64,000 bases of DNA from Candidatus Krumholzibacteriia bacterium (GCA_041908585.1 JAYRFB010000199.1:88-64087), one strand, 5' to 3'; shown: positions 7,240 through 60,011, numbered from the stretch's first letter. Notes: a model not told the origin generated them from the letters alone. A program made the numbers and translations.

Positions 7240-10200
7240 TCACCGCCCGGCGCCGTCCCCATCCAGCGCCGCGCGCAGCGCGCGGGCCACGTCGTCGCCG
7301 GCGAACGGCTTGGGCAGCTTGGCGGCGAACCCGTAGCGGCGGTGGTCGGCCATCACCGGGTCGTGCGAGTACCCGCTGGTGACGATCGCGCACGCGCCCG
7401 GATCCAGCTCCCGCAGGCGCGCCATGGCCTCGCGTCCGCCCATGCCGCCGGGCACGGTCAGGTCCATGATCGCGGCCCGGAACGGCCGGTCGCCGCCGGC
7501 GGCCTCGGCCCAGGCGCGCAGCGCGGCCTCGCCGTCCGCGACGGCGGTGACCGCGTGGCCCTGGCGCGTGAGCAGCCGCACGAGCAGGTCGCGGATGGGC
7601 TCGTCGTCGTCCATCACCAGCAGCCGGAGTCCACCGTCTGCCGTCCGCGTGGCGTCCTCCCGCCGGGAGCGCGGCTGTTCGCGGCTGGCCGGCAGCAGCA
7701 ACGTGAACTCGCTGCCGCGACCGGGCTCCGAGGTGACGCGCAACGTGCCGCCGTGCCGCGCGACGACCGAGTGGGAGATCGCCAGGCCCAGCCCTGAACC
7801 CTCCTTCTTGGTCGTGAAGTACGGCTCGAAGATGCGATCCAGGTCCGCGGGGGGAATGCCGCAGCCCTCGTCCCGTACGCTGATCTCGACCTGGCGACCG
7901 GCGTCCGCGCGGCCGTCGGTCAGCGCGGCATTGCGCGCCGCGACCCGGACGTGCCCACCGTCGGGCATGGCCTGCCGCGCGTTGATGAGCAGGTTGCTGA
8001 TCACCTGCTCGACCTGGCCGGCGTCGACCTCGGCGAACCACAGGTCGTCGGCCAGCTCCAGCGAAGGGATGACGTTGGTGCCCGCCGTCGCCAGTTCCGC
8101 AGCCTCGCGCACCAGGTCGCGCAGGTCGACCAGGCGCTTCTGCGGCGCGCCGCCGCGCGCGAACGTGAGCAGCTGGGCCGTCAGGCGCCGGGCGCGCCCG
8201 GACGCGGCGACGATCTGCTCCAGCGGCAGCCGTTGCCGCTCGGTGCAGTCCAGGCCCAGCAGCGAGGCATTGCCCAGGATCACCGTCAGCAGGTTGTTGA
8301 AGTCGTGCGCGATCCCGCCGGCAAGCACGCCGAGCGACTCGAGCTTCTGCGTGCGCACGGCAGCCTGCTCCGCGCGCCGGCGCTCCGTCGTGTCGCGGAA
8401 GGCGACGACAAGGCCGTCGGCCCGGCCACCGGCGGCGAGCGGGGCCGCCGCGCACTCCAGGATTGCCTGGCCGTGCTCGCCGCCCCGCAGCAGGTACTCG
8501 AAGTGGGCCCGCGCCGTGCCGACGCCCGGCGGCGCGGCGGCGTCGAGCGCGCGGCGGGCTGCTTCGCCGAGCCCAGGCAGGCAGGCCTCGAGCGGCAGCC
8601 CGGCCAGTTCCGCGTCACTGCGACCGAGCACGGCGGCGGCAGCAGGGTTCGCCAGCCGGATCGTCGCGTCGCCGTCCAGCGCGACGACGCCGTCGGAGAT
8701 GCTGGCCAGCACCGCCGACAGCCGCTCCGACTCGGCGCGCACGGCAGCCTCGGACAGCGCCAGCTCCCGCGTGCGCTGCGCCACCTCGGCGGCCAGCCGC
8801 CGCGCGTAGCGCCGGCCCTGCGCGAACGAGACGACCAGCCAGACCAGGCCGGCCAGGGCGACGGACGCCACCACCGCGAACCACGGCCGCGCGTGGAGCG
8901 GCGGCACCACGACGATGCGGCCGGTGGAGGCCACCGCGCTCCGGCGGCCGTCGATGTCGACGGCCTGCACATGGAGGCGATAGTGACCCGGACGCAGGTG
9001 CGTGTAGCTGACCGAGCGGGCCGGGTTTTCGGCAGGCGTAGACCAGCCTGCATCGCCGCCCTCGAGGTGCGTGGAGAACCGCAGGCGCGCCTCGTCACGG
9101 TATGCGGGCGCGCAGAACCGCACGACCAGCTCGTGCGCCGAAGGCGGGATCTCGAGTTCCCCCGCGGGGTCGTGCCGCTCGCCGTCCAGCCGGATCTCCT
9201 CCAGCCAGAGCGGTAGCTCCCCCGCGCCGCGCGACTGCAGCCGCTCGTCGAACACCGTCACGCCGCGGTTCGTGCCGATCCACACGCGGCCCTCCGTGTC
9301 GCACAGCAGGGCATCGCGGTTGACCTCGGCGCCGGCCAGCCCGTCGGCCACGCCGTAGCGGCGCAGTTCGCGCCCGTCCCACACCAGCGCGCCGGCGCCG
9401 GTGCCGAACCAGAAGCGGCCCTTGCGGTCGCGCGCGATCGCGTAGACCGGGTCGTCGATCACGGGATCCGGGGCCGCCGTCGATTCCAGCCGGCCGTCGC
9501 GCACGAGGCAGAGACCGCTGGAGGTGCCGACCCAGACGCGGCCGTCATCCGTCTCGATCATCTCGAACGAACTGGCATTCCCGGCCGCCTCGTCGCCCGG
9601 CCAGTGTTCGATCCGGCCCTCCTTCACGCGGAAGACGCCCTCGGTCGTGGTCGCCACCAGCAGCGCGCCGTCGGCGGTCACGAGCAGGCGCCTGATCACG
9701 GGCTGGCGGCCCTGTCCGCGATCGTGGAGGTGGATCCGCTCGAACCGCCTGCCCTCGCGGCGATACAGGCCTTCGGAGGTGCCCGCCCACAGGCGGCCGT
9801 CGCGGTCGTGCACGACGGCGTAGACCGGGCCCTCCAGGCCATCGGCCTCGCCGGCCCAGGTTACCGCGCCGTCGGGATCCAGCCGCGCCAGGCCGCTGCG
9901 GTCCATGGCCGCCCAGAGGACGCCTGCCGGGTGCTCGTGCAGGTCCATCGCCCGGCTCCACTCCTTGCCGGGTCCGGTCAGGGGCAGTGCGGTGGTGTGC
10001 GTGCCCGGGAACGAGAGGCCGCCCTCGTGGCCCAGCACGATCGAGCCGTCGGCGCGCTGGAGGACGGCGCTGACCTCCTCCTTCAGCAGCCCGTCGGCGG
10101 TGCCGTAGCTGCGCAGGTGCCGGCTGGCCAGCTTGCTCGTGCCGCGGTAGTTCGCGATCCAGACGGAGCCTTCGCGATCGACCATGATGTCCGACAGGCC

Positions 10201-33668: not shown

Positions 33669-33701
33669 GGCGGCCGCCGGGTGAACCCCCCGGCGGCCGC
33701 C
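33669..33701. terminator. Strong hairpin between convergent genes (bidirectional terminator candidate)
   Basis: GGCGGCCGCCGGG-tgaaccc-CCCGGCGGCCGCC forms a 13-bp perfect stem. Confidence 0.55.
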
Positions 33702-33749: not shown

Positions 33750-34304
33750 TCAGCGCGCGCCCGCCGCCGACTCCAGCATGGCCTTCAACTCGGCGTAGTT
33801 CGTGGCTTCCGAGAGCGGGTGCTCGGTCAGGTTGTAGACGCCGATCCGGCGGTTGGCTGCGTCCAGGATGACGACATCGCGCCAGGTCACCTCCCAGGTC
33901 GTCCAGACCGGCTGGGCGAGCGTCTCCTGCAGCAACGGGAGGTCGCGACCGGCGACCATCTGCGGGTTGCCCGATTCCTGGCCGACGGCATTGACGCCGA
34001 GGATGCGCACGCCGTCCACGCCGTCGGCGGCAAGATCGTCCTGCATGAGATCGAGATAGCCGAACTGGCTAACGCAGGTCCCTCAGGTCGAGTGGCCGAA
34101 GTACCAGGCCGACACCACGCCCTGGTAGTCGCGCGGCGAGACCGGGTCGGCGTACGTGGCCGACTGCGGGTTGACGTCCAGCAGCACGAAGTCCGGCATG
34201 GCCCCGGAGCCGGGGCCGGAAGCGTCGTCGTCGCTGCAGGCCGCCAGCGCCGCGGCCAGGGCAAGTGCCGCCAGCAGGCGCGTCGTGCGCAGGTTCCTGT
34301 TCAT
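33750..34304 (-). CDS. Thioredoxin-fold (TlpA/redoxin-like) lipoprotein with in-frame TGA; probable selenoprotein with a U-G-T-C redox motif
   Basis: ORFs 34083..34304 and 33750..34046 are in the same frame, separated only by TGA 34083-34085 and 12 sense codons. The joined product reads ...LAAALAACSDDD...VSAWYFGHST-U-GTCVSQFGYLDLMQDD...RILGVN...VVILDAANRRIGVY. There is no RBS before the 34046 ATG. Confidence 0.7.
34057..34071 (-). promoter_or_regulatory. Candidate bacterial SECIS apical hairpin
   Basis: The mRNA reads UAGCC-AGUUC-GGCUA, starting 11 nt after the UGA, with G-U in the loop. An outer CCUGC/GCAGG pairing (34078-34074 with 34044-34040) is possible. Confidence 0.4.
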
Positions 34305-35302
34305 GCCTTCTCCTTGTCACCGTTGCGGGCGGCCCGACGTCGGCGATGACGCCACAGTCCGGCCCGCACCAGGCGGCGGGTGAACCCCACGTGGCCCTCG
34401 GGATCCTGCGCCAGGCACATGTCGGCGCCGCCGAAGCCGTCGGGAGGGAAGTAGATGCCGCAGTTGGCGTTGATCTCGAGCATCCAGGGCGTGCCCTCGT
34501 GGTCGACGCGGACGTCGCAGCGCCCGAAGCCCGCGCCCTTGAGGGCGACGAACAGGCGGGCCGCCTCGGATCGCAGGCGCCGCGCCAGCTTGCGGTCGGT
34601 CACCGGCCCGGAGGACATGCGGTCGTAGTCGACCCACTTCATCTTCTCGTGCTTGAACGACTCGCCCGGCGGGAAGGCGTACTGCACCGGCGGGTAGGTG
34701 CGCGGCCGTTCGGGGCGGCCGGGAACCTCCGCCACCAGCACCGTGCATTCGGTGCCCTCGATGAACTCCTCGATCAGCGCGGCGCCGTGGCGCCGGATCA
34801 TCTTGCGCGCCTGGCGGCGCAGGCCGGCTTCGCTCACCACGCGCGAGGCGCGGCTGAGGTCGACGCTCGCGTAGCTGCTGTGGTGCTTGACGATCAGCGG
34901 GTAGCGCAGGCGCGCGGCGGCGCGATCAATGTCCTCTTCCCGCCGCGCGACCGCCCAGGCCGGCGTCGCGATGCCCAGCGCGCGGCAGGCGCGCTTCATC
35001 GTCACGCGCGAGGGCTCGTAGAACTCGGAGGTGGCGCCGGTGAAGGGCAGGTCCAGGCGCTCGAGCGCTCGCACGACCTCGATGCCCGGCACGTGGCACT
35101 CCGCCGTGCCGTCGCAGAGGTTGAAGAAGACGTCGAAACCCTCGCGGGCCAGGCGGCGGATGGTGCGGACCGACGTTCCCTTTTCCAGCGTCTCGACGTG
35201 CCAGCTGGCCTCCGGCAGGTAGGGCCGGGGGTCGCAGGGCCAGTCGTCGGCGGGGAAGGGCTGCGCGTCGAGGTCCTGGGGAGTCAGCAGGCAGATGCGC
35301 AC
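34301..35302 (-). CDS. ATP-grasp ligase (D-Ala-D-Ala ligase-like family)
   Basis: The GTG start gives VRICLLTPQDL, parallel to the (M/V)RIxL N-termini of the two other ATP-grasp paralogues. Other motifs are YPLIVKHHSSYASV, IEEFIEGTECTVLV and WMLEINANCG. The stop overlaps the selenoprotein ATG (ATGA). Confidence 0.75.
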   Translation of the reverse strand: MRICLLTPQDLDAQPFPADDWPCDPRPYLPEASWHVETLEKGTSVRTIRRLAREGFDVFFNLCDGTAECHVPGIEVVRALERLDLPFTGATSEFYEPSRVTMKRACRALGIATPAWAVARREEDIDRAAARLRYPLIVKHHSSYASVDLSRASRVVSEAGLRRQARKMIRRHGAALIEEFIEGTECTVLVAEVPGRPERPRTYPPVQYAFPPGESFKHEKMKWVDYDRMSSGPVTDRKLARRLRSEAARLFVALKGAGFGRCDVRVDHEGTPWMLEINANCGIYFPPDGFGGADMCLAQDPEGHVGFTRRLVRAGLWRHRRRRAARNGDKEKA

Positions 35303-35425
35303 GGGAGGGGCGGCCTTTCGGGTCCGGGCTGGTCGTCGGGCTGCGGCGCGCCCCGGTGTCCCGACCGGGAGGACGGCGCCGCGGGCGACCGCCGACCGGC
35401 CGCCCGCAGCCAAACATAGCACAGC

Positions 35426-38400
35426 CTACCGCACGAGCACGAGCTTGCGTGTCGCCGACCCGGCGCCGGCGCCCTCGGCGCGCAGGAAATACACGCCGCT
35501 CGCGGCGGCGCGACCGCCGTCATCCAGCCCGTCCCAGACCACGGTGCGCCAGCCCTCGGCCAGCTTCCCGTCGTAGAGGTTGCGCACGCGGCGGCCGCGC
35601 ACGTCGTGCACCGCCAGCTTCACCGCGCGCGTCGCATCCACGTACAGGCGGACGGATACCGAAGGGTTGAACGGGTTCGGCCACGGCAGGTCCAGCGCCA
35701 GCGGCGCCGCCGGCACCACCGTCCCATCGGCGGGCGCCACGCCCGGCGACGACAGCACGCCGTCGCGGCGCATGTTGCCCTTGTACGTGGGCCAGAACGC
35801 CTTGGCCTCGCTGTGCGCGAACGGCAGGTCCCAGACGTGGCAACGGAAGTCCCAGCCGGCGTAGACCAGGTCCACGTCGCCGTCCAGGTCCAGGTCCGTG
35901 ATCACCGGCGAGGTGCGTACCGGGCCGGTCAGCGTGACGGGGAACCCGCTCATCGGCTGCCCGTCCGCGTGGTACACGTACAGGTTGTAGGGCGCGCCGA
36001 CGTCGCCGCCGCCGATGCCCTGCACGATCTCGGGCGTGCCGTCGCCGTCCAGGTCGCCGACGACCGGGCTGGCCTCGCTGGAGCCCGGGAGGTCCACCGG
36101 CCAGCCCGGGCGCACCTGGCCGGAGGTGCCGTCGGACGTCTTCGTGCTGACGACGACCAGCTTGGAACTGAGTCCCGTGGCGTTGGGCGTGTAGACGATC
36201 TCCAGCCAGCCGTCGCCATCCAGGTCGGCCAGGGCGGGGCTGGTGACCCACTGGTTGCTGGCGGCGTAGGGCATCAGCCGCGGGAAGCCCGGATAGTCCG
36301 TCCCGTTGGCACGTACCGCGTAGAGGTAGCGCCAGTTGTCGAACAGCACGAGTTCGACCTGGCCGTCGCCGTCCAGGTCGCCGGCGGCGATATCGCAATC
36401 GACGGCACCGCTCACGGTGCGCGGGAAGCCGGGCACGTTGGTCCCGTCGTGGCGCAGGGCCATCAGGCGCCGGATGCCGGTCGCGTCGTTCTTCGTGCCG
36501 AACACGATGTCGCGCCGGTCGTCGCCGTCGAGGTCGACCAGCGTGGGGCCGCTGCGCGACCACTCGCCGCCGGCGCCGGCGCGCACGTAGAAGATGCCCT
36601 GCGTGGCCGGGTTGGCATCGCCGTCGCGCACCTCGGTGCCGTCGGCGTTCCAGGCCCAGACCATGCCGTTGACCGTGTTGACGACGATCTCGGGCAGGCC
36701 GTCGCCGTCGATGTCGCCCACCGCCGGGGCGGCCCAGTTGATGGTCGTGCCGGACGCCGTGTTCAGCGGGCGCGGCCAGCCCGGCAGCGCGCTGCCGTCG
36801 GCGCGGAACACGTGCACCTTCGAGCCCTGGTTGCGCTGGCAGGCGATGAACTCCTGGCCGGCCACGCCGTCGAGGTCGGCCATCGTCACCGCTGACAGCT
36901 CGAGCAGCGCGCCCGCGGCGAAATCGGTGAACTGGCCCAGCGTCAGCGCCTGCGCGTCGCCGTCGCGAACCTCCCTGCCGTCGTGGTGCCAGGCCCAGAC
37001 CTGGTTGCTGGACAGGACGATCTCGGGCCGGCCATTGCCGTCGATGTCGCCCACGGCGAGGGGACCGCTGGTCTCGCCGTCGAAGCCGGCGGGGAAGCCG
37101 ACCATCTCACCCGGTGCCGTCGACTGGCTGACCACCGCGGACAGGACGCTCGGCACGCGCGACGAGTCCACCGCCGCCACCCGGTAGTGGAACGGCGTCA
37201 GCTGGGGCAGCCCGGTGTCCGTGTAGGAACAGATGCGCTCGAGGATGTCGCGGTTGATCCGCGTCCACGGCCCGGCCACGGAGTCCGCGCGGTAGACGAC
37301 GTAGCCCAGGATGCCGTCGTGCGCCGGAGGATCCCAGGTCAGCAGGATCGAGTCGGGGCCCAGCTCCGTCGATGCCGCCAGACCCGACGGCGCGGGCGGG
37401 CGCCCCAGCGAGAAGTCGTGCCTGAGCTGCCGCCCCTGGGCGTCGGTCACCAGCACCCAGGCCGCGCCGCCGGCGCCGGCGCTCGTCAGCGACAGCGACA
37501 GCGGCGCCGCGTTGCCGGCGTGGCCGAGAAGGCCCAGCGGGCTCCAGGTGGCGACGGTGTCGTGCAGGACCACGTTGGGGTCCTGCGTGCGCAGCCGGCC
37601 CGTCAGCGCGCCGGTGGTCCCGACGCCGAAGTTGCGCAGGTCCACGGTCACGCCCACGCGCTCGCCGTCGTCCAGCGCGCCGTCGCCGTCGCCCCAGGTC
37701 GCGTCCTGCCAGTCGAGCGTGTCCACCTCGGGCTCGGGCGCGTTGAGCGCCGCCTCGATCTCCGAGTACCAGTGGGTGGTGCCGGACCGGACGTCAGAAC
37801 GGAACCGGATCGGTTGGCCATCGGGCAGTCCGGCGGAGAAGTCCACCAGGATGGGCGACTGGGCGCTGGTCGCGGCACCGGCGGCGGCGTTGGCCAGGAC
37901 CACCTCGCCGGTCACCACCGTGACGCCGGGCGTCGTCGAGACGAGCTTGCCGCGCAGCGTCGTCGCGTTGCTCGTCCCTGTGTTGAGGTAGGTCGGCGTG
38001 AAGGCGATGCGCTCGCCCGCGTCGATGACGCCGTTCCCGTTGCCGATGCTGCCCGAGGCGCCGTTGTCCAGCAGCGGAAGCCCGGTGACCTTCAGGTAGC
38101 GCCCCGAGGCGGCGACGGGGATCGATCCCGCGTGGGCTGCGAAGTTCGGCCCCGTCACCGTCAGCGTGGCACTGCCGGCGCTGGCCAGGATCACCGGCAG
38201 CGCGGCCTGGCCCGACGCATTCGTGGTGGCCCAGGCCAGCGCCTCGCCGGGCTTGGTCAGGCACACGACCGCGCCCGGCGCCGGACCGCCGCCCGAGGTG
38301 ACGGTCACGTTCACGACCTGCTCGCCGAGGGGCAGCGAGGCCGGGGCCGCCACGGCCAGCGCCTGCGGCACGGCACTCCACAGCATGAGCGCGGGATCGC

Positions 38401-40243
38401 CCAGCAGCGTGTAGTTCTCGAACGTCCAGCGATCCAGGTAGTTCTGCACCGTCGCGGCCAGGAACGGCAGGCGGCTGAGCGCCACCAGTCGTCCCACGCG
38501 GTGCTCGCCCTCGCAGTAGAGCTGGGCGAAGAACTCCTGCTGGTACGCGTTGACCGCCGAGGGGAACGCCTCCCGCGTCGAGCCCAGCGTCGCGACGGCG
38601 CCGCCGCCCGGGTTCTGCAGCAGTCGCTCCATCAGGCAGCTGTTGTCGAAGGCGGCCGAGGCGCAGTTCAGGCCGTAGAGGAGGAACGGGTGCGCGGCGT
38701 TGGCCAGGTTGTCGGCATCGACAGTCGTGAAGTTCCCGTCGCCGACCGACATGTTGAAGAAGTAGCCGTGGCCGATCTGGTTGACGATGCCGTAGTGGCC
38801 GGTGTTCAGCGTGTCGACCAGGCTGGCCCGGGTCAGCGGCAGGTCGCGGGGGAACAGGGCGTCCGTCTCGTACATGCGGAGCGCCTGCAGGTCCGTGCAG
38901 GTGCCGATCAGCGCGTTGTACTGCTGGTCGGCGAAGCTGGCGCCGTCCAGCGTGATCGTCGCGCCCGGCGTGTACGCCTCGGGGAACAGCACCTCGGCGG
39001 CGAACAGCACGCGGTTGGTCCAGCCGACATTCGCCGGCTGCGACTCGTACTGGATGACCTTCTGCACGAATAGTGTCGCGTCGGCCGGGGTGCTGACCGG
39101 CGCGCGCCCGATGTACACTTCCTCGGCGAAGTCCACCAGGTCGCCCGGCTCCTCGTAGCGCGCCGGCTGCCCGTAATTCTCGTCGCCGTCGGCGTTCCAG
39201 TTGCCGTCCAGGCAGGCGAAGTAGAGGTCGCAGGGGATGGCCGTGTAGCTGTTGGCCGGGTAGAGGCTGTTCAGGATCAGCCGCGGGGGCAGCACCTCCG
39301 AGTCGCCGCCCAGCAGCACGTACTCGACGCCCCACTTGGCGTAGGCATCCTGGATGTAGTAGCGGATCGTCTCCTGGATGTCGGCACCGCGGCGGTGGTT
39401 CGCCGCGATGTACTCGCGCGTGGCGACCACCGTCGGCATCCCTCGTGCGGTACGGTAGTCGGCCAGGGCCTGGAACGACGGGGCCAGCGCCTCGTTCGTG
39501 ATGATGAGGGCCGTCACGGGGCTGCCCGACAGGCTCGGTGTCTTGTCGGGGTTGAACCCGCCGGCGGTTGCCGCCACCGGCAGGCCGTCCTGACGCGCCG
39601 CCATGCCGAGCGCGGACGGATTGTCCACCAGCCGCTCCAGGAGGCGGCGCGTACCGGCCGCCTCGCCGGGCACCAGGCGCTCGCGGGCCAGGATGTCCGG
39701 GGCGCCGCCGGCGGCCTCCCATTGCACCCGAACCTCGTACGCATCCAGGAACTCGCACGCGCCGTCGCCGCGGTCCAGCAGGGGCTGCACGGCAACGGCC
39801 ACGAGCTGGTAGCCCCGCCACGCGTGCACCGACGATGCGGCCAGCCAGTCCTGTTCGCCCGTCGTGACGGGATGCGGCAGCGGCTGACCGGTGGAGGTGA
39901 GGAGTTCGCCACCCGTCGCCAGGCCGCCGGGCGCGCGCACGACGTGCGTGGCCAGCGGCTCGATGGTCACCGCTGCGACGCGGCGATCCGCCGGCACGAC
40001 CAGCAGGTGCTGGCGCGTGGGCACCTCGGGTGCGCCGGGACGGGGCAACAGACGCGTGCCGGGCAGCACGGGCGTGGCGCCGCCTGTCCCCTGGCGCCAG
40101 GCCAGGCTGGTCGCATCGAACATGTCCTGGTGGATGACCTCGCCTGCCCGCGCGGGCGCGCCCCCGGCGGCGGCTGCGTGGCACGGTACGGCCAGCAGCG
40201 ACAGGGACAGCAGGGCAATGACGCCGACGGCGTGGCGACGCAT
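35426..40243 (-). CDS. Secreted peptidase C25 (gingipain-like) with FG-GAP/VCBS beta-propeller repeats and a C-terminal FlgD-Ig/T9SS-type domain (1605 aa)
   Basis: Signal peptide MRRHAVGVIALLSLSLLAVPCHA. The C25 core is ALIITNEALAPSFQALADYRTARGMP...YVLLGGDSEVLP, with catalytic-type IGHG and LNCASAAFD. At least 7 DxDGDG-type FG-GAP repeats are present. The tail is PWPNPFNPSVSV...VVWDGLDDGGRAAASGVYF. Confidence 0.85.
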   Translation of the reverse strand: MRRHAVGVIALLSLSLLAVPCHAAAAGGAPARAGEVIHQDMFDATSLAWRQGTGGATPVLPGTRLLPRPGAPEVPTRQHLLVVPADRRVAAVTIEPLATHVVRAPGGLATGGELLTSTGQPLPHPVTTGEQDWLAASSVHAWRGYQLVAVAVQPLLDRGDGACEFLDAYEVRVQWEAAGGAPDILARERLVPGEAAGTRRLLERLVDNPSALGMAARQDGLPVAATAGGFNPDKTPSLSGSPVTALIITNEALAPSFQALADYRTARGMPTVVATREYIAANHRRGADIQETIRYYIQDAYAKWGVEYVLLGGDSEVLPPRLILNSLYPANSYTAIPCDLYFACLDGNWNADGDENYGQPARYEEPGDLVDFAEEVYIGRAPVSTPADATLFVQKVIQYESQPANVGWTNRVLFAAEVLFPEAYTPGATITLDGASFADQQYNALIGTCTDLQALRMYETDALFPRDLPLTRASLVDTLNTGHYGIVNQIGHGYFFNMSVGDGNFTTVDADNLANAAHPFLLYGLNCASAAFDNSCLMERLLQNPGGGAVATLGSTREAFPSAVNAYQQEFFAQLYCEGEHRVGRLVALSRLPFLAATVQNYLDRWTFENYTLLGDPALMLWSAVPQALAVAAPASLPLGEQVVNVTVTSGGGPAPGAVVCLTKPGEALAWATTNASGQAALPVILASAGSATLTVTGPNFAAHAGSIPVAASGRYLKVTGLPLLDNGASGSIGNGNGVIDAGERIAFTPTYLNTGTSNATTLRGKLVSTTPGVTVVTGEVVLANAAAGAATSAQSPILVDFSAGLPDGQPIRFRSDVRSGTTHWYSEIEAALNAPEPEVDTLDWQDATWGDGDGALDDGERVGVTVDLRNFGVGTTGALTGRLRTQDPNVVLHDTVATWSPLGLLGHAGNAAPLSLSLTSAGAGGAAWVLVTDAQGRQLRHDFSLGRPPAPSGLAASTELGPDSILLTWDPPAHDGILGYVVYRADSVAGPWTRINRDILERICSYTDTGLPQLTPFHYRVAAVDSSRVPSVLSAVVSQSTAPGEMVGFPAGFDGETSGPLAVGDIDGNGRPEIVLSSNQVWAWHHDGREVRDGDAQALTLGQFTDFAAGALLELSAVTMADLDGVAGQEFIACQRNQGSKVHVFRADGSALPGWPRPLNTASGTTINWAAPAVGDIDGDGLPEIVVNTVNGMVWAWNADGTEVRDGDANPATQGIFYVRAGAGGEWSRSGPTLVDLDGDDRRDIVFGTKNDATGIRRLMALRHDGTNVPGFPRTVSGAVDCDIAAGDLDGDGQVELVLFDNWRYLYAVRANGTDYPGFPRLMPYAASNQWVTSPALADLDGDGWLEIVYTPNATGLSSKLVVVSTKTSDGTSGQVRPGWPVDLPGSSEASPVVGDLDGDGTPEIVQGIGGGDVGAPYNLYVYHADGQPMSGFPVTLTGPVRTSPVITDLDLDGDVDLVYAGWDFRCHVWDLPFAHSEAKAFWPTYKGNMRRDGVLSSPGVAPADGTVVPAAPLALDLPWPNPFNPSVSVRLYVDATRAVKLAVHDVRGRRVRNLYDGKLAEGWRTVVWDGLDDGGRAAASGVYFLRAEGAGAGSATRKLVLVR

Positions 40244-40478
40244 GGATGGCCTCCGGTGCGGGATGGGTGATGCGCGGGCGGGCAGTGCCCGCCCCGGCGG
40301 GGCGCATCCATGCGCTCCGGGGTGCCTCGACAAGTGTACAACGGATCGGGGTCGTGCGGCAACGCGGTCGCGACCAGGTCGTCCCCCGCGACTGATAGCG
40401 CCCGTTCAGCCGCCCGGTCCGCGGGATGCGCTGCAGATTCCGGTTTCCACGGGGCGGGGGGCGCGTCATCTTGCGCCG

Positions 40479-43106
40479 ATGGAAACCCCGCTTCCCAGTC
40501 CTGGCATCGCGCCCGTCCCGGGACCGGTCGCACCCCCTGCGGCCTGGTCCGGCTGGTACGGACAGGCCTGGCCGCTCCTGAGTGCCGGCGGCGTCTGGTT
40601 ACGCGGGGGCGAGCTCAACACGGTGCCTCCCGCCGAGTGGGACCACCGGCCGTACCGCGTGCTGCTGGCGCGCCTGTCGACTTATCGCGATACCGCCGTC
40701 TCCACCTCGCACCTGCTGGTCCATGCCGTGCTTGCCGGGTTGGCCGGCGTCTACCCGGACCTGGCCTGGCTGCCGCCGCCGCGCGACGGCGAGCTGATGA
40801 CCGCCGCCGGAGTGCCGTGGCTGCTGGGGACGCAGACCAAGCGTGGCGTCCGCGAGTTCGACTGCCTGGGCGTGTCGCTCTCGGTGCCCCAGGAGACGAT
40901 CAACCTGGCGGCGATGCTCGTGCGCAGCGGCATTCCCGTGGATCGACGCGAGCGGCTGGCCGACGAGGGCTTGCCCCTGGTGATCGCCGGCGGTGCCAGC
41001 GTCGGCGCGGCCGCGGCGCTCTACGGTGACGACGCCGGTGTCGACGGGATCTTCATCGGCGGCGACCCGGGCGCGATCGCCACCCTGTTCGCGCGCTGCC
41101 GCGATGGCCGGGCCCGGGGGCTGGGCAAGCGCGAGGTGCTGGCGTCGCTGCGCGACCTCGAGGGCTTCGTGCTGCCCGGCGAGCCGTTGCCGGCCCCGGG
41201 CCGGCAGGCGCCGGGCTCATCGCCGCGCCGGACCGGCGGCGGGGAGGGCGCCGACGTCGCCGTTCCTGCAGCCGCGATGCCCGTCAGCTACGACCTGTCG
41301 CGCACCGGCATCGTCACGGTTCCGATCACCGAGGGCTGCCGCTGGAAGTGCAGCTTCTGCTACGAATCGTGGCTTCACCCGCGCTACCGCAGCGTGCCGG
41401 GCGACGACATCGACGCGCGCGCCCGCGAGCTGAAGGCCTGGTCCGGCGCGCACCGGGCCGAGCTGTTCAGCTTCAACTTCGACATGCACGAGGACATCCG
41501 CGGCATCATCGAGCGCCTCAGTTCGCGCTTCGACCGCCTGGGGCTCAAGAGCCAGCGGTTCGACCAGCTGGCCGGCGACCCGGGGCTGCTGCAGATCATG
41601 CACGCTGTCGGCAAGACCAGCCTCACCTGCGGCATGGAGGGCATCTCCGACCGCCTGCGCGCCTACCTCAACAAGCGGCTCGACGACGCGAAGCTGCGGC
41701 GCGCGCTGGCGGCGATCGCGGCGGCGCCGCTGCGCCAGGTCAAGGTGTTCCTCATCGCGACGGGGCGCGAGCGCGACGACGATTTCGCCGAGTTCGCGGC
41801 GCTCCTCGCCTGGTTCCGTTCCGAGCTGGATGGACAGGGGCGGCGGCCGCGCGTCATCTTCTCGATCACGCCGCTGGTGCACTTCCCGTCCACGCCGCTG
41901 GTCTACGAGGCGCCGCCGTCCCCGGACCGCACGGCGCGCGTGGTCCGGCGCCTGGCGGTGACGATCCGGCGCGCCGGCTTCCAGGTGCGGGCCGCCGCGC
42001 GCGATCCCGAGGCGGTGGTGTCGCAGGCGCTGGTCAGCGGCCGTCATCCGCAGGCGCCGGCGGCCGATCCCGGCGACCCGACCGCGACCTGGCGCGCGGT
42101 CGTCGCCGCCGTGCGCGAGCACGGGTTCGTCTACTACGACGCGATCACGGCGGCCTTCCAGGACGACTTCCTGGCGCGGTTCGCGGCCGGGCCGCGACCG
42201 GACGCCGCCACACCTCCGACGGCGTTGCCTGCCGTGGCGCCCGGCCTGGCGGAGGAGCCGGTGCGGCGCGTGCACGCGCTGAGCCTGCGCGGCCTGGACC
42301 TGCCTGCCGGGGCGCAGGCGCCGGCCTCGCGTGATCGCGTGCGGCCCGCGCGCCCGCCCCGGTCGGCCCGCGGCGCGGTCGACGGGACCGGCCCGGAAGA
42401 GGCGGCGCTGGCGATCCGCCGGCGCATCCTGGCGGCACGGCGCGACCGCCGCGAGGTCGTATTCAACGTGGACCTGGGGGCCGCGGCGGCGGGCCTGCCG
42501 CGCGGCTACGTCGCGGCAGCGCTGGGCCGCGCGTTCATGCTCGCCGACGCCGGCCTGGTCGACGCCTTCCGGGGTCCCGGCACCTCCGCCTGGGGCGCCA
42601 AGGACCAGCCCTGCCGCCTGGTCGGGCACGACCGCCTGGGCCTGCTGTGGACCGCCGCGGGGGCCGCGCGCGCGGAGGCGCGCTGGCGCGATGACGCCGG
42701 GTTCCTGGCGGCGGTCAACGCCGGGCTGGCGCCCTGGGGCCGGCTGCTGCCGGCAACCCTAGCCGCGGCGCCGCGGCCCAGCCTGGCCTTCGCGGCGCCC
42801 TTCCCGGCAGCGGGACCAGCCTGGCTGGCGGCGCAGCACCTGCGCTACGTGCAGAGGCGACTGCCCGACGGGCCGGGCTGCCGCTGCGAGATCGCTCGCG
42901 ACTCGCTGAGGAAGAAGCTCGTGCTCGACTACGCGCAGCGCGACCTGCCCGGCGGCGGCACCGAGGTTGAGGTGGTCCCGGGCGAGCGCTTCGCCGTGGA
43001 GGCGTTCTGCCGCGAGGCCTTCCTGCCGCCGCGCCCCGAGGACCAGGCCCGTGTCACCGTGCGGGCGACGCTGTTCGCCACGACCGCCGGCGCGGCAGAC
43101 CCCTGA
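40479..43106 (+). CDS. Large radical SAM protein, TIGR03960-like, with a long C-terminal extension (possibly DUF2344-like)
   Basis: The CX3CX2C motif lies in VPITEGCRWKCSFCYES. The N-terminal B12-binding-like region reads GGELN...YRVLLARLSTY...EFDCLGVSLS...PLVIAGG. The last 53 nt overlap the convergent desaturase. Confidence 0.72.
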   Translation: METPLPSPGIAPVPGPVAPPAAWSGWYGQAWPLLSAGGVWLRGGELNTVPPAEWDHRPYRVLLARLSTYRDTAVSTSHLLVHAVLAGLAGVYPDLAWLPPPRDGELMTAAGVPWLLGTQTKRGVREFDCLGVSLSVPQETINLAAMLVRSGIPVDRRERLADEGLPLVIAGGASVGAAAALYGDDAGVDGIFIGGDPGAIATLFARCRDGRARGLGKREVLASLRDLEGFVLPGEPLPAPGRQAPGSSPRRTGGGEGADVAVPAAAMPVSYDLSRTGIVTVPITEGCRWKCSFCYESWLHPRYRSVPGDDIDARARELKAWSGAHRAELFSFNFDMHEDIRGIIERLSSRFDRLGLKSQRFDQLAGDPGLLQIMHAVGKTSLTCGMEGISDRLRAYLNKRLDDAKLRRALAAIAAAPLRQVKVFLIATGRERDDDFAEFAALLAWFRSELDGQGRRPRVIFSITPLVHFPSTPLVYEAPPSPDRTARVVRRLAVTIRRAGFQVRAAARDPEAVVSQALVSGRHPQAPAADPGDPTATWRAVVAAVREHGFVYYDAITAAFQDDFLARFAAGPRPDAATPPTALPAVAPGLAEEPVRRVHALSLRGLDLPAGAQAPASRDRVRPARPPRSARGAVDGTGPEEAALAIRRRILAARRDRREVVFNVDLGAAAAGLPRGYVAAALGRAFMLADAGLVDAFRGPGTSAWGAKDQPCRLVGHDRLGLLWTAAGAARAEARWRDDAGFLAAVNAGLAPWGRLLPATLAAAPRPSLAFAAPFPAAGPAWLAAQHLRYVQRRLPDGPGCRCEIARDSLRKKLVLDYAQRDLPGGGTEVEVVPGERFAVEAFCREAFLPPRPEDQARVTVRATLFATTAGAADP

Positions 43107-54761: not shown

Positions 54762-54859
54762 CGACGGTGTCCTTTCCGGGTTGCGGCGGCGCGGCGCCAG
54801 GTGCGGCCGGTCGGCGGACCTGCGGATTCCGGGGGCGCGCGGCGCCTCTGCATCCTATC

Positions 54860-55402
54860 ATGGCGCGAACGCCACGCCGACCCCTGACCGCGCCCGTGCG
54901 GGCGCCGCCGGAGGCCATCGCCTTGCTCCAGCAGATCCTGATCATCGTGGTTGCCCTTGGGGGCGTCACGCTCGGCGCCGAGCTCCTGGTGCGCGGCGCC
55001 TCGCGCCTGGCGCTGCGCGCGGGCGTCTCTTCGCTGTTCGTCGGGCTGACCATCGTCGGCTTCGGCACGTCTTCGCCCGAGCTGGGCGCCAGCCTGACCG
55101 CGACGCTGCGCCAGTCATCGGACGTGGCGCTGGGGAATGTCGTCGGGTCGAACATCTTCAACATCGGCGTGATCCTGGGGCTGACGGCGCTGCTGCAGCC
55201 GATCCGGGTGCAGCTGTCGGCCGTGCGCAGGGACCTGCTGGTGGCCACGGGCGCGGCCCTGGTGCCGTGGCTGGCGCTGCCGTTCGCCGGCTTCATCCCG
55301 CGACCGGCGGGCCTCGCGCTCGTGGCGCTGCTGGTCGCGTACCTCGTCGGCGCCTACCGCCAAGCGCGCCGGGCGGCCGCCGCCGAGGTGCAACTGGTCT
55401 AG
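54860..55402 (+). CDS. yrbG: CaCA (YrbG-like) cation/Ca2+ antiporter, N-terminal half (alpha-1 repeat), ending at an in-frame TAG
   Basis: Motifs GFGTSSPELGASL and GNVVGSNIFNIGVILG are present. The frame stops at TAG 55400-55402 within the expected central loop. Confidence 0.6.
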   Translation: MARTPRRPLTAPVRAPPEAIALLQQILIIVVALGGVTLGAELLVRGASRLALRAGVSSLFVGLTIVGFGTSSPELGASLTATLRQSSDVALGNVVGSNIFNIGVILGLTALLQPIRVQLSAVRRDLLVATGAALVPWLALPFAGFIPRPAGLALVALLVAYLVGAYRQARRAAAAEVQLV

Positions 55403-55925: not shown

Positions 55926-56420
55926 TCAGCCGTCCAGCCGCCGGCAGTACGTGTACTTGGCGTCGCCCGGCGCGTAGAAGTCCGCGAACACTCCCGCCGT
56001 CGCGTAGCCGCTCCGCTCGTAGAAGGCGCGCGTGGAGGCGTACTGCGCCTTGCCGCTGGTCTCGGCGTAGAGCGCCAGGCCGCCGTTCTCCCGCGCGCGA
56101 CGTTCTGTCTCCCGCAAGAGGCGCCGGCCCAGTCCGGCGCCCTGGCCGGATGGGTGCACCGCGATCCAGTACAGGTCCCAGCTCACCGTCGAGCACGGCA
56201 CCCGGCCGTAGCAGCTGTAGCCCGCCAGGCGGCCCTGTCCGTCGTCCGCGAAGAGGAACTCGTAGCCGGCCGCGGCGCCGCGCGCCAGCGCCTCGGCCAC
56301 GAGCTCGGCCGCGATGCCGACCTCCTCGTCGCTGAAGTAGCCGGTGTCGCGCACCAGCCCGCGCACGGCCTCGACATCCGTGGGCCGCACCTGGTCGCGG
56401 AAGAGGATGGTGTCGCTCAT
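55926..56420 (-). CDS. GNAT-family N-acetyltransferase
   Basis: The acetyl-CoA motif IAVHPSGQGAGLGRRLL is present, followed by YERSGY. Confidence 0.85.
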   Translation of the reverse strand: MSDTILFRDQVRPTDVEAVRGLVRDTGYFSDEEVGIAAELVAEALARGAAAGYEFLFADDGQGRLAGYSCYGRVPCSTVSWDLYWIAVHPSGQGAGLGRRLLRETERRARENGGLALYAETSGKAQYASTRAFYERSGYATAGVFADFYAPGDAKYTYCRRLDG

Positions 56421-56456
56421 GTCGGTCAGGCTCCGGTCCGTTTCCCGTGGTAATGC

Positions 56457-57446
56457 TCAGCGCCGTGCCGTGGCGACGATGCGCGCGATGGCCTCGGCGA
56501 ACGGGATCCCTGCCCGCTCCAGCGCCGCGGCGAAGCCCGCGTCGGGCGACAGGCAGGGATTCGCGTTCACTTCGAGGATGAAGGGGCGGCCCTGCGCGTC
56601 GACGCGGAAATCCACGCGCGCCCAGCCCCGCAGGCGGAACAGGCGCCAGCAGGCCAGGGCCAGGCGCGTCATCTCGGCGGCCAGCGCCTCGTCCCCGGCC
56701 GGCAGGTCGAAGCGGCGCACGGTGTGGCGGTACTCGAACGAGTCCTCGTGCCACTTGGCCGCGTAGCCGACGATGCGCGGCTTGCCTTCGGGGAAGCCGT
56801 CGAAGGTGATCTCGGCCGGGGGCAGCACCTCGGGACCGTCGGGGCCGTCGAGCAGGCCCAGGTTGAACTCGCGGCCCTCGACGAACGCCTCCGCGAACCA
56901 CGGCGAGCCGGGCCGGCCCTCGCGGCGGGCCAGTTCGGCGCGGGCGGCAGCCGCGCCGCCGTCGACCACGGCGCCGTCGTCCATGCCCAGCGAGGCGTCC
57001 TCCCAGACCGACTTCACGATCCAGCGCGAATCCTGCCCGGCGCCCGGGTCGGCGGCGGCGTCGGCCAGCCCGTCGCCCAGCCAGTCGGGCGTGGGCAGCC
57101 CGGCCCGCCGCAGCAGCCCCTTGGCCAGCACCTTGTGGGAGGTGAGGAAGATCGCCTCGGCCGGGCATCCGGCCATCGGCACGCGCAGGGCCTCAAGCAC
57201 GCCCGGCGCCAGGTGGATGAGGCGCCCGTGGCCCTCCAGCCCCTCCACGAGGCTGAAGACCAGGTCCGGCGTGGCGCCACTGAGCGAGAAGGCCAGCGAC
57301 TCGAGGTCCAGGTCGCAGCCCCACGGCTCGACCACATGGCCCAGGGCGATGAGCGCTTCGCCCACCGCCTCGACCTGCACCAGGACGTCCATCTCGTCCG
57401 GCGCGGCGTCCGCCGGCACGCGGTTGTGCAGGATCACGATCCGCAT
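56457..57446 (-). CDS. ATP-grasp ligase (Ddl-like), paralogue 2
   Basis: Motifs: MRIVILHN at the N-terminus, DLVFSLVEG, WIVKSVWEDASLG, AEAFVEGREFNLGLL and FILEVNANPCLS. Confidence 0.8.
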   Translation of the reverse strand: MRIVILHNRVPADAAPDEMDVLVQVEAVGEALIALGHVVEPWGCDLDLESLAFSLSGATPDLVFSLVEGLEGHGRLIHLAPGVLEALRVPMAGCPAEAIFLTSHKVLAKGLLRRAGLPTPDWLGDGLADAAADPGAGQDSRWIVKSVWEDASLGMDDGAVVDGGAAAARAELARREGRPGSPWFAEAFVEGREFNLGLLDGPDGPEVLPPAEITFDGFPEGKPRIVGYAAKWHEDSFEYRHTVRRFDLPAGDEALAAEMTRLALACWRLFRLRGWARVDFRVDAQGRPFILEVNANPCLSPDAGFAAALERAGIPFAEAIARIVATARR

Positions 57447-57473
57447 GCGGCGGCGCCTTCCGTCAGGGAGGAC

Positions 57474-58466
57474 TCAGCGATGGGCCGGCGCGACCCTCGC
57501 GGCGGCCGACTCGACGATGCGCCCGATCAGCTCGTCGTACGGCAGGCCCGCCATCCGGCAGATGATCGGCAGGTCCGAGTGCCCGGGATGCAGCCCGGCC
57601 AGCGGGTTGAGCTCCATGAGCTGCGGCTCGCCGTGCGCATCGCAGCGCAGGTCCAGCCGGCCACCGTCGCGACAGCCCAGCAGCCTCCAGGCGGCCAGCG
57701 CCACCGCTTCGGCCTTCGCCACCACGGGATCCTGCGCGGTGACCAGGCGGTACTGCACGCGGTCCTCCCACAGTTCCTTGTTGGCGTAGGTGTAGGCGCC
57801 CGGCTCGGCGCGCTCGCCCAGGATCACCTCCATGGTGCCGACCACGCGCGCCGCGTCGCCCGTTCCGGTGATGCCGGTGGTCAGCTCGCGCCCCGGCAGG
57901 TAGGTCTCCACCAGCACGGGCTGCCGGAACCGCGCCAACAGCTGTTCGCAGGTGGCGCGCAACGCATCCGGCGAGCGCACCAGCGAGGCGCCGTCGACGC
58001 CCTTGCCCGTGCCCTCGGCCAGCGGCTTGCAGAACAGCGGATACGGAAGGTCCACGGCCGCGATGTCCGCCGGCGCGTGCACCTCGCGGAAATCGGGTGT
58101 CGGCAGGCCGCCGTCGCGCAGCACGCGCTTGGTCAGGCCCTTGTGCAGCGTCAGCGCCAGCACCAACGCATCGCTGAACGTGCAAGGGATGGCGTACGCG
58201 TCCAGCAGCGCCGGCACCTGGGCCTCGCGGGCGACGCCGTGCAGGCCCTCGGCGATGTTGAAGACCAGGTCCCAGCGATCGCCGGCGACCAGTCGCCCGG
58301 CCAGCGCCTTGACGTGGCCGATGCGGTCGGTCTCGTGGCCCAGCCGGCGCAGCGCCCCCTCGATGGCCTCGACCGTGTCGGGCTGGTCGAACTCCGCGGT
58401 CTCCTCCGCCGTGAAGCCCATCGCCAGGTAGTCGTCGCGCAGGTCGTAGGTCAGGCCGATCCTCAC
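57474..58466 (-). CDS. ATP-grasp ligase (Ddl-like), paralogue 1
   Basis: The GTG start overlaps the kamA stop (GTGA), with GGAGG 9 nt upstream. Motifs: VRIGLTYDL, DLVFNIAEG, YPLFCKPLAEGTGKG, VETYLPGRELTTGI and QLMELNPLAGL. Confidence 0.8.
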   Translation of the reverse strand: MRIGLTYDLRDDYLAMGFTAEETAEFDQPDTVEAIEGALRRLGHETDRIGHVKALAGRLVAGDRWDLVFNIAEGLHGVAREAQVPALLDAYAIPCTFSDALVLALTLHKGLTKRVLRDGGLPTPDFREVHAPADIAAVDLPYPLFCKPLAEGTGKGVDGASLVRSPDALRATCEQLLARFRQPVLVETYLPGRELTTGITGTGDAARVVGTMEVILGERAEPGAYTYANKELWEDRVQYRLVTAQDPVVAKAEAVALAAWRLLGCRDGGRLDLRCDAHGEPQLMELNPLAGLHPGHSDLPIICRMAGLPYDELIGRIVESAAARVAPAHR

Positions 58467-59596
58467 CAGGTCGCCTCCAGCGCGGCCTGGCCGCCCGGGC
58501 CATCCGGGTAGCGGTGGACGTGTCCCTCGTAGTTGCGCAGCAGCACGTCCGTGCCGTCGCGGCCGACCAGGTAATCCGGCTGCAGCGGGATCTTGCCGCC
58601 GCCGCCGGGCGCGTCGATGACGTAGGTCGGCACTGCGTACCCGGTGGTGAAGCCGCGCAGCCCGCGGATGATCTCCAGCCCCTTCTGCACCGTGGTGCGG
58701 AAGTGGGCCGAGCCCGAGATCGGGTCGCACTGGTACAGGTAGTACGGCCGCACCCGCATCATGAGCAGCGAGTGGACCAGGGATTTCATCACCGCCACGT
58801 CGTCGTTCACGCCCTTGAGCAGCACGGTCTGGCTGCCGAGCGGGATCCCGGCATCGGCCAGGCGGCGGCAGGCGGCGGCCGCCTCGGGCGTGCACTCGGC
58901 CGGGTGCAGGAAGTGCAGGCTCAGCCACAGCGGGTGGTGCCTGCGCAGCACCTTGACCAGCGCCGGCGTGATGCGCTGCGGCAGCACGGCCGGGACCTTG
59001 GTGCCGATGCGCACGAACTGCACATGGGGGATCTTCCGCAGTTCGCCCAGCAGGTAGTCCAGGCGCTCGTCGCTGAGCGTCAGCGGGTCGCCGCCGGACA
59101 GCAGCACGTCGCGGATCTCCGGGTGGCTGCGGATGTAGTCCAGCGCCGTGTCCCAGCGCTCGCGGCCCGGGCGCAGCTCGTCCTGCCCGACCACGCGCGA
59201 GCGCGTGCAGTAGCGGCAGTACGTGGCGCAGCGGTCCAGCACCAGGAAGAGCACGCGGTCGGGATAGCGGTGCACCAGGCCGGGAACGGGGCTGTGCCCG
59301 TCCTCGTCCAGGGGATCATCCGCCTCGCCGGGCATGCGCAGGAACTCGTTCTGCACGGGCACCACCGTGCGCCGCAGCCCGCAGTCGGGCTCGAACGCGT
59401 CCAGCAGGCTCATGTAGTACGGCGTCACCGCGACCGGCAGCAGCGAGCCGCAGCGGTCGAGCGCCGCCCGCTCCTCGTCGGCCAGTTCGAGCACGCGGGC
59501 CAGCTGCTCCGTCGTCCTGAACGAATGCCGGAGCTGCCATTTCCAGTCGTGCCAGTCGGCGTCCTTCACGTCCGGGAAGTGCGCGCGACGGAACAT
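58463..59596 (-). CDS. kamA: KamA-family radical SAM lysine 2,3-aminomutase
   Basis: Motifs: WHDWKWQLRH, LPVAVTPYYMSLLD, the CX3CX2C motif in CATYCRYCTRS, LLSGGDPL, and YYLYQCDPISGSAHFRT. The start at MFRRAHF is chosen from the GC3 drop upstream; ATG 59833 is an alternative. Confidence 0.85.
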   Translation of the reverse strand: MFRRAHFPDVKDADWHDWKWQLRHSFRTTEQLARVLELADEERAALDRCGSLLPVAVTPYYMSLLDAFEPDCGLRRTVVPVQNEFLRMPGEADDPLDEDGHSPVPGLVHRYPDRVLFLVLDRCATYCRYCTRSRVVGQDELRPGRERWDTALDYIRSHPEIRDVLLSGGDPLTLSDERLDYLLGELRKIPHVQFVRIGTKVPAVLPQRITPALVKVLRRHHPLWLSLHFLHPAECTPEAAAACRRLADAGIPLGSQTVLLKGVNDDVAVMKSLVHSLLMMRVRPYYLYQCDPISGSAHFRTTVQKGLEIIRGLRGFTTGYAVPTYVIDAPGGGGKIPLQPDYLVGRDGTDVLLRNYEGHVHRYPDGPGGQAALEATW

Positions 59597-59925
59597 GCGC
59601 GTGCGCGGACCGGTGCGGGGCAGCCGCCTGGCCAGGAGGTGTTCGAGCTGGATCGGAAGTGCGGGGATATTGGCTGACGCCGCGGAGGGATCGGGTTCGG
59701 CAACAAGCGACGGAGGGTCGTCGGGAGAGGCTCCCGCATCGACCTCCTGCAGGTTCCGGCCCGGCCCGGCCAGGGAGTCCAGGCGAGCGCTGAGTCGTGT
59801 CAAGGTCCGCCTCCGTGAGGACTGACCGTGATGCATGACCGGAGGGGGCTGGCGCCGCCGCCGGAACGTCGCCTGCGCCGGCGGGAGCCGGGCGGTGCCC
59901 TCCAGGGTCACATGACGACGCGCAG

Positions 59926-59953
59926 AAAATATGGCAAGTGGAACAAGTGTCAA
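59926..59953 (-). promoter_or_regulatory. Near-consensus sigma70 promoter upstream of the kamA operon
   Basis: On the minus strand: TTGACA (59953-59948), a 16-nt spacer, then TATTTT (59931-59926). Confidence 0.45.
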
Positions 59954-60011
59954 CCGCAATCGCCCGGATTCGTCGAAAATTCCCTCGCCAGGCGGACGAC
60001 GGTCGCTCCGT

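Follow-up and report, generated by a model that had tools for sequence, protein, structure and literature searches.

Thioredoxin-fold proteins with a UxxC motif are the commonest kind of selenoprotein in bacteria (PMC1976440), and the UxxC families published in the surveys of Zhang and Gladyshev include a Prx-like thiol:disulfide oxidoreductase, a thiol:disulfide interchange protein and a DsbA-like protein (PMC1976440). In bacteria the SECIS element is a stem-loop that follows directly on the UGA and bears a conserved G in its apical loop (PMC1976440), and an example of that kind is given in PMC13326102. Compared by description only, the Zhang and Gladyshev families resemble the TUGYCR family in being homologous to thiol oxidoreductases, in holding Sec within a UxxC motif, and in having both Cys homologues and a SECIS element. 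The TUGYCR family and its selenoprotein nature are already curated by NCBI and are not new: the model, NF053656, bears the title "TUGYCR motif thioredoxin fold (seleno)protein" and has a curated cut-off of 100 bits. A search of a literature library under the family name found no publication on it. Here we set beside these systems a locus in a 64 kb window (the whole stretch of DNA that was analysed) from a Candidatus Krumholzibacteriia bacterium.

Two minus-strand ORFs are listed at the locus, 34083..34304 (73 aa, ATG) and 33750..34046 (98 aa, ATG). They lie in one reading frame and are split by a TGA and 12 sense codons, as an earlier reading made from the sequence alone (hereafter the sequence-only reading) had pointed out, and the ORF list and our own translation agree on this. 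Translated in that frame, 34304..33750 gives the single 184-codon read-through product which that reading had proposed, with the TGA at 34085..34083 as its sole internal stop. The elements of the gene, observed and predicted, are as follows.

33750..34304, minus strand: coding sequence of the probable selenoprotein, a TUGYCR-family thioredoxin-fold lipoprotein of 184 codons plus a terminal TGA at 33752..33750
34310..34315, minus strand: Shine-Dalgarno sequence AAGGAG, seen in the sequence 5 nt before the first ATG and within the end of the preceding gene
34236..34304, minus strand: predicted lipoprotein signal peptide, residues 1-23, with lipobox L-A-A-C and Cys23 at 34238..34236, assigned from the motif
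34083..34085, minus strand: in-frame UGA, predicted Sec residue 74 at the first position of U-G-T-C, in a column that is TGA in 80 of 82 copies
34074..34076, minus strand: Cys77 codon TGC, putative resolving partner of the UxxC motif, in a column that is Cys in 77 of 77 copies
34056..34072, minus strand: SECIS-like hairpin with arms 34072..34067 and 34061..34056 and the loop AGUUC at 34066..34062
33879..33881, minus strand: Arg142 codon CGC, invariant in alignment A2 and placed just before strand beta3 in the structural model

The N-terminus of the product, MNRNLRTTRLLAALALAAALAAC, is basic and then hydrophobic up to the lipobox; this leader, together with the LAAC motif and its Cys23, bears out the suggestion that the protein begins with a lipoprotein signal, and most full-length homologues carry an equivalent N-terminal hydrophobic stretch followed by a Cys in the alignment. 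The residues before the TGA read ...VSAWYFGHST, those directly after it are GTCVSQFGYLDLMQ, and in the one-frame translation FGHST* is followed by GTCVSQFGYLDLMQDDL. The 12 bridging codons (GGG ACC TGC GTT AGC CAG TTC GGC TAT CTC GAT CTC) contain no in-frame ATG, GTG or TTG and, on a recount that matches the richness in third-position G and C described earlier, have G or C at 9 of 12 third positions. Inspection also agrees with the statement that the ATG of the second ORF, at 34046, has no Shine-Dalgarno-like sequence before it. Across the public assembly collection, 55 blocks contain the identical 73-aa N-terminal half, always called as a separate ORF with the 98-aa ORF following it, both named "hypothetical protein". 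The same TGA is found in the separate assemblies L081-L084 of the source organism.

The window has a G+C content of 72%, and its 45 high-GC3 ORFs end in TGA (29), TAG (16) or TAA (none). TGA is thus a normal stop codon here and indeed the commonest one, as had been claimed. Because TGA is the usual stop in the window, an altered genetic code is excluded, and the sequence-only reading was right to speak of site-specific recoding and not of a variant code. In the 64 kb window no other gene convincingly split by an in-frame TGA was found.

Read with C in place of U, the product matches NCBIfam NF053656.1 (redoxin_TUGYCR) at E = 4e-63 and 211.7 bits, residues 36-179 aligning with positions 1-145 of the 146 in the profile. 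A search against family models had been suggested as a check on the read-through, and this curated profile spans the TGA site. By this match the window protein belongs to the NF053656 family. It shares with the family the full-length match, the domain size, the core T-U-G-x-C and the column of Sec, which Cys only rarely occupies. The family takes its name from the motif TUGYCR; in the window copy and the two relatives closest to it the motif is T-U-G-(T/V/I)-C-V. Set against T-U-G-Y-C-R, the window motif T-U-G-T-C-V keeps T, U, G and C and has T for Y and V for R, and these two positions vary in other family members too. Against Pfam, again with U as C, the window protein scores 15.5 bits with Redoxin (threshold 26.6) and 11.8 bits with SCO1-SenC (threshold 22.8), both sub-threshold, and shows no AhpC-TSA match. 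Among 30 family members there are weak matches to AhpC-TSA (seven), Redoxin (three) and SCO1 (one).

A homologue search of 5.8 billion proteins gave 79 relatives, which were aligned. Full-length relatives among them cross the site with Cys, in the forms CGYC, CQIC, CSYC, CHEC and CPIC; other aligned relatives have W or G at the Sec column, many of about 100 aa start just past the motif, and one group stops at "...YYFGAAT" before it. Both halves keep a coding-type conservation in this alignment. At the DNA level (L089) the site that reads as W in the relative P0001 is a TGA codon, and no table-11 translation leads to P0001. Because this codon is TGA, the W and G forms are, judged from the nucleotide sequence, gene-calling artefacts of the same in-frame TGA.

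We then turned to one genome per GTDB species, scanned with a 12-sequence alignment, the 31-sequence alignment A1 being too diverse. The scan found 149 relatives, and 80 loci were retrieved and compared; all are from MAGs except that of Plesiocystis pacifica SIR-1, and their labels are Eisenbacteria, Krumholzibacteria, Polyangiaceae and other Myxococcota, Pirellulaceae and other Planctomycetota, Gemmatimonadetes and Acidobacteriota. The nearest relatives of the window protein are those of L001 (77% identity) and L002 (72%). Among 77 motif-matched copies the site codon is TGA in 75, TGT in one and TGC in one. Five loci missed by the motif pattern have TGA as well when read by eye, which brings the total to 80 of 82 copies, and none of the 82 has TAA or TAG at the site. 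On the evidence of this column, the in-frame TGA is a feature far beyond chance.

A wider profile search, of 1.84 billion cluster representatives, returned 2396 matches at E <= 0.001, of which 1357 reach E <= 1e-10. Most of the top matches have their own residue 1 at profile position ~78-81 and would therefore be truncated Sec forms. The 224 family proteins that we collected include 29 with CxxC and eight with WxxC or GxxC; some 102 are C-terminal halves and 28 end directly before the Sec column. Sec/Cys exchange is a hallmark of selenoproteins, and the alignments place such a Sec/Cys column at the nucleophilic position of the UxxC motif. The sequence-only reading had put the TGA at the first Cys of a CxxC motif and had looked to Cys-containing homologues aligning across it. 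The Cys forms do run straight through the site with Cys in the column, and the first Cys of the ResA motif CEPC aligns there too. With 80 of 82 species copies carrying TGA, the use of Sec by this family may be almost obligatory.

Downstream of the TGA a hairpin is conserved at the RNA level. Alignment A3, which covers 72 nt around the TGA in 76 Sec-type genes and is gapless, contains a 6-bp helix (columns 20-25 with 31-36) closing a 5-nt loop AGUUY; RNAalifold predicts the same helix independently. The helix is paired in 97.8% of cells; shuffles give 83.5%, and controls in which the partner column was slid give 25-51%. Compensatory double changes occur at four of the six pairs, in 54 cells, and 0 of 500 shuffles reach the values of the real alignment. 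The silent third base of a Gly codon (GGC, GGG, GGA or GGU) changes in step with the second base of a variable codon that stands two residues before it, the pairings being AGC-GGC, GGC-GGC, GCC-GGG, GUC/AUC-GGA and GAC/AAC-GGU. Since it is the silent Gly third base that tracks the upstream codon, the covariation is not an effect at the protein level.

The UGA is followed at 10 nt by the start of the conserved helix and at 16 nt by that of its loop, which contains G-U, a geometry like that of bacterial SECIS elements, in which the loop starts ~16-20 nt after the UGA and holds a G. The window copy forms five of the six conserved pairs, contiguously, together with a U.U mismatch at the outermost pair that is also present in L001 and L002; extra outer pairs are G34073-C34055, G34075-C34053 and U34076-G34052. 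The helix is present in the MFE fold of the window sequence taken singly, the 71-nt region there folding no better than shuffles (z = 0.03), and Rfam gave no match at the gathering threshold and only noise around the gene at E up to 10. Six Cys-form genes keep 5, 4, 6, 2, 3 and 3 of the six pairs. The comparative evidence, on which the assignment rests, points to a SECIS-type element as expected, conserved with compensatory changes only in the TGA genes.

Genes for decoding Sec were sought as well. No selA, selB or selD was found among the ~35 ORFs scanned in the 64 kb window, ARAGORN detected no tRNA-Sec either in the window or in any of L001-L084 (84 loci), and no Sec-decoding genes were found within the related loci compared. 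The ARAGORN output for L066 included a 97-nt "tRNA-Trp", which we set aside as a false positive lying inside coding DNA and without Rfam support. The cultured carrier among these organisms, P. pacifica SIR-1 (L080), has a family copy with TGA. A planctomycete selenoprotein fdhA operon is well conserved in this strain, with 65% amino acid identity (PMC4807772), and this conservation of fdhA suggests that P. pacifica SIR-1 uses Sec.

Two readings of the TGA that do without Sec have to be weighed against these results. One takes the locus for a broken gene, in which a nonsense mutation of TGC to TGA or a sequencing error has left a pseudogene or two unrelated short ORFs. Such a lesion needs a single base change and the public pipelines do give separate 73- and 98-aa hypothetical proteins, but the same TGA is shared by 80 of the 82 copies, which come from different species, and recurs in independent assemblies, the stop is never TAA or TAG, both halves show coding-type conservation with a covarying hairpin after the TGA, and the second ORF has no Shine-Dalgarno sequence of its own; we regard a broken gene as extremely improbable. 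The other reading accepts translation through the TGA and ascribes it to something besides Sec, either an altered code with UGA as Trp or Gly, or a near-cognate tRNA-Trp or tRNA-Cys acting at a leaky stop. The W or G found at this column in some database translations speaks for it, as does the lack of visible Sec machinery within 64 kb. However, TGA ends 29 of the 45 window ORFs, so that no code change is seen, and the W and G come from gene callers that used another translation table, the codon in L089 being TGA. In addition, the column is that of the catalytic Cys of a CxxC motif, and the geometry of the hairpin fits a bacterial SECIS (PMC1976440). Read-through of this kind is very unlikely in our view. 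Taken together, the family model, the Cys homologues, the TGA in 80 of 82 copies, the covarying hairpin and the predicted fold described below uphold the proposal of a probable selenoprotein. We hold with high confidence that 34304..33750 forms one gene, which encodes an exported thioredoxin-fold lipoprotein of the NF053656 family and in which the UGA at 34085..34083 is decoded as Sec; that it is one reading frame is a matter of observation.

For the structure we modelled a Cys-form homologue, P0003, which is 52% identical to the window protein, using AlphaFold and a 30-sequence alignment (mean pLDDT 93.6, pTM 0.84). Its residues C63 and C66 correspond to U74 and C77 of the window protein and come after a strand (53-59), at the start of a helix (64-83), which is the canonical active-site position of the thioredoxin fold as predicted for this homologue. 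The best PDB match of the model in Foldseek is Bacillus subtilis ResA (E = 7.6e-10, target TM 0.81), followed by a Chlorobium DsbE, Geobacter thioredoxin-like proteins and the pneumococcal surface lipoproteins Etrx1/2, and then by CcmG, Sco1 and a Bcp. The top matches are without exception oxidoreductases of thioredoxin fold, and the target TM is ~0.8 for ResA, DsbE, Etrx and Sco. A sequence search of the PDB gave only a marginal DsbE match (E = 0.11), in which the motif is aligned with WCGPC. With provisional reference sequences, so that the results are to be read as leads, hhalign of the family gave a probability of 90.5 with ResA and 83.8 with Escherichia coli Bcp. In these same provisional alignments, U74 falls opposite the first Cys of the ResA CEPC and opposite the Thr of the Bcp TPGC.

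The model confidently predicts a fold like that of ResA, TlpA and DsbE, in which helix 1 carries the redox pair at its N-terminal end. The proteins ResA, TlpA, DsbE (CcmG) and Etrx share this fold with the P0003 model, at a TM of 0.8 and a Foldseek E of ~1e-9 for ResA, the redox pair of the ResA/TlpA group lies at the helix-1 N-terminus after a beta strand as it does in the TUGYCR model, and Etrx1/2 are exported and membrane- or lipid-anchored like the window protein, for which lipidation is predicted from the motif. In contrast to the ResA/TlpA group, the window family has Sec for the first Cys and Arg-Asp for the cis-Pro, and identity between the two is only 16-26%, with the Redoxin score sub-threshold. 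Arg142 is followed by a nearly invariant Asp143, and in hhalign, with its provisional references, Arg142 falls opposite the ResA cis-Pro and also opposite the catalytic Arg of Bcp. Protein-disulfide oxidoreductases use their cis-Pro for backbone binding, and peroxiredoxins use a catalytic Arg. The Bcp stretch aligned with Arg142 in hhalign (provisional Bcp sequence) is H-R-I-S-F-L-I-D, its catalytic Arg, in R-I-S-F-L-I-D, matching the Arg of R-D-V-V-I-L-D in the family. Likeness to the AhpC-TSA/BCP group extends to the weak Pfam matches in seven of 30 family members; the PxxxT/SxxC motif of that group is missing from the window protein, which reads G-H-S-T-U-G-T-C, and relative to this Bcp sequence the second Cys of the family stands at the position of the peroxidatic Cys and Sec at that of the Thr. 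The sequence-only reading had called the protein TlpA/ResA-type. This fits as a description of the fold, the model being ResA-like, and does not hold as family membership, which we do not assign because the Pfam Redoxin and SCO1 scores are sub-threshold and the cis-Pro is missing.

The selenoprotein gene is the last of three minus-strand genes, and its surroundings comprise the following.

34301..35422, minus strand: ATP-grasp, D-Ala-D-Ala-ligase-like enzyme of 373 aa (Pfam Dala_Dala_lig_C, E = 4.4e-15)
35426..40333, minus strand: secreted protein of 1635 aa with Peptidase_C25, FG-GAP repeats, fn3 and a T9SS C-terminal sorting domain
33669..33701, no strand assigned: perfect 13-bp GC-rich inverted repeat with a 7-nt loop, found by repeat search between the convergent gene ends at 33750 and 33637

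The Peptidase_C25 gene is the first of the same-strand run. The stop codon of the ATP-grasp gene overlaps the start of the selenoprotein gene (ATGA), which implies one transcript and translational coupling. The ATP-grasp protein scores under all NCBIfam Ddl cut-offs; public calls of its gene use a later start, giving 333 aa, and the exact 373-aa product is not on record. Adjacency of the ATP-grasp gene to the selenoprotein gene is confined to the closest relatives, L001 and L002, the gene being merely nearby in two Krumholzibacteria loci, and outside L001, L002 and the contigs L081, L083 and L084 of the same species no Peptidase_C25 gene adjoins the selenoprotein gene. When the ORFs of the 80 loci were clustered all against all, no gene emerged as a family-wide partner, and the context therefore gives no functional clue. 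The inverted repeat is possibly a bidirectional terminator, one without a T-run; the terminator and promoter scan, which for terminators requires a T-run, came back empty and left the repeat uncalled. The convergent gene beyond the repeat has no assigned family.

By analogy with bacterial Sec decoding and with thioredoxin-fold enzymes we infer how Sec may be inserted, the protein lipidated and the redox cycle run, and on what kind of substrate. SelB carrying Sec-tRNA(Sec) would bind the hairpin in the coding sequence while the ribosome stands at the UGA, and the hairpin would in this way direct decoding of 34085..34083 as U74 by the SelB/tRNA-Sec route. Once the pre-protein had been exported and its Cys23 lipidated, U74, capping helix 1 at the N-terminal end, would attack the substrate as a nucleophile, and Cys77 would then resolve the intermediate as a selenenylsulfide.

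As to the substrate, our first choice is a small oxidant, for example a hydroperoxide, which the protein would reduce; reduction of protein disulfides in the manner of ResA/TlpA comes next, and a Sco-like role last. The lean towards a small oxidant is due to the invariant Arg-Asp that replaces the cis-Pro in the comparison with provisional references and in the P0003 model, and it is a tentative one, small-oxidant reduction itself falling somewhat short of an even chance. A protein-disulfide reductase of the TlpA/ResA/CcmG type, fed by CcdA or DsbD and serving for example cytochrome c or Sco maturation, would agree with the best structural matches (ResA, DsbE, CcmG and Etrx), with the alignment of the motif to the DsbE WCGPC in the only PDB sequence match, with the hhalign scores, in which ResA stands slightly above Bcp (90.5 vs 83.8, provisional references), and with the lipoprotein nature shared with the pneumococcal Etrx proteins. 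Yet the substrate-binding cis-Pro of such enzymes is replaced here by the invariant Arg-Asp, genes for CcdA/DsbD, cytochrome maturation or Sco do not occur as conserved neighbours, and the weak Pfam matches favour AhpC-TSA over Redoxin by seven to three, so that this role seems to us possible at perhaps one chance in three. A Sco-like function in metal handling is unlikely, and we would give it about one chance in four. Beyond the lean to small-oxidant reduction, it is a speculative proposal, and on balance a doubtful one, that TUGYCR is an uncharacterised class of periplasmic selenoenzymes, shaped like TlpA/ResA, with the cis-Pro swapped for a peroxiredoxin-type Arg and with Sec almost obligatory.

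The locus is an ordinary one, since its family is already curated at NCBI as one of selenoproteins. It is a correctly called selenoprotein and a clean example of mis-splitting in public data. Its practical value is for annotation: every public copy of the locus that we examined is split into 73- and 98-aa "hypothetical proteins", about 130 of the 224 collected family proteins are truncated halves of the same kind, and some pipelines read the TGA as Trp or Gly. For the biology, the locus adds a lipoprotein that by inference uses Sec to a high-GC lineage with T9SS-type sorting domains, and, if the selenoprotein call is true, implies that the source organism decodes Sec. The exchange of Arg for the cis-Pro offers a concrete hypothesis on the chemistry of the family, and it is there that residual novelty lies. 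If the selenoenzyme proposal were true, TUGYCR would be a Sec-dependent extracytoplasmic peroxidase, or a reductase of another small oxidant, and such an enzyme would be widespread in Myxococcota, Planctomycetota, Eisenbacteria and Krumholzibacteria.

The family to which the selenoprotein belongs (NCBIfam NF053656, TUGYCR motif thioredoxin fold (seleno)protein) also includes multi-domain versions, among them a 612-aa protein (P0080) and a set of Planctomycetota-type proteins of about 215 aa (P0002, P0005-P0008 and P0011). The 612-aa protein starts directly past one presumed TGA and ends directly ahead of another, with no CxxC motif left in its inner domains. In the Planctomycetota-type proteins, domain 1 carries T-A-Y-A where UxxC would be expected and domain 2 stops at the Sec column, the first position of that motif.

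Tandem paralogues of the selenoprotein gene were found at three loci of relatives. At L085 (ENA ERZ27248703 k141_730334) one TGA copy adjoins one TGC copy, the latter keeping five of the six pairs of the SECIS-like hairpin. L019 (positions 6178 and 7017) and L029 (5353 and 6115) carry two TGA copies apiece. At a further locus, L066, ARAGORN called a 97-nt "tRNA-Trp (cca)" at 7167..7263 (+), with the selenoprotein gene roughly 700 nt upstream. We judged this call a false positive since the site is GC-rich, coding-like DNA for which Rfam gives no tRNA match.

Elsewhere in the window, there is an Rfam riboswitch match (45.5 bits vs a gathering score of 37), a set of two single-domain Na_Ca_ex ORFs and a second D-Ala-D-Ala-ligase-like ATP-grasp locus:

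7041..7101 (−), nhaA-I riboswitch match
54767..55402 (+), Na_Ca_ex ORF, 211 aa
55409..55891 (+), Na_Ca_ex ORF, 160 aa
55926..56420 (−), GNAT acetyltransferase, adjoining the ATP-grasp gene
56457..57446 (−), second ATP-grasp gene of the window
58463..59959 (−), KamA-type lysine 2,3-aminomutase, near the ATP-grasp gene

The Na_Ca_ex ORFs share a frame and are separated solely by TAG 55400..55402; they are either one CaCA-type exchanger with an in-frame TAG in its central loop or two half-size genes. The minus-strand genes spanning 55926..59959 may form a cluster for beta-amino-acid ligation.

Three ORFs encode FlgD_ig-like domains, and a radical SAM gene is transcribed divergently from the first of them, the C25-peptidase gene:

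35426..40333 (−), T9SS type-A C-terminal sorting domain and FlgD_ig-like domain
39891..43106 (+), radical SAM protein, B12-binding-type, 1071 aa
45363..46016 (+), FlgD_ig-like domain
61627..63132 (+), T9SS type-A C-terminal sorting domain and FlgD_ig-like domain

The radical SAM gene also neighbors the C25-peptidase gene in the two nearest relatives (L001 and L002) and in a same-species contig (L081). The genome is 72% G+C, and the nearest relatives are labeled as Eisenbacteria, Krumholzibacteria or "Fibrobacteraceae" MAGs. Taken together, these labels and the T9SS (two of the three ORFs) and FlgD_ig-like domains suggest an FCB-group origin.
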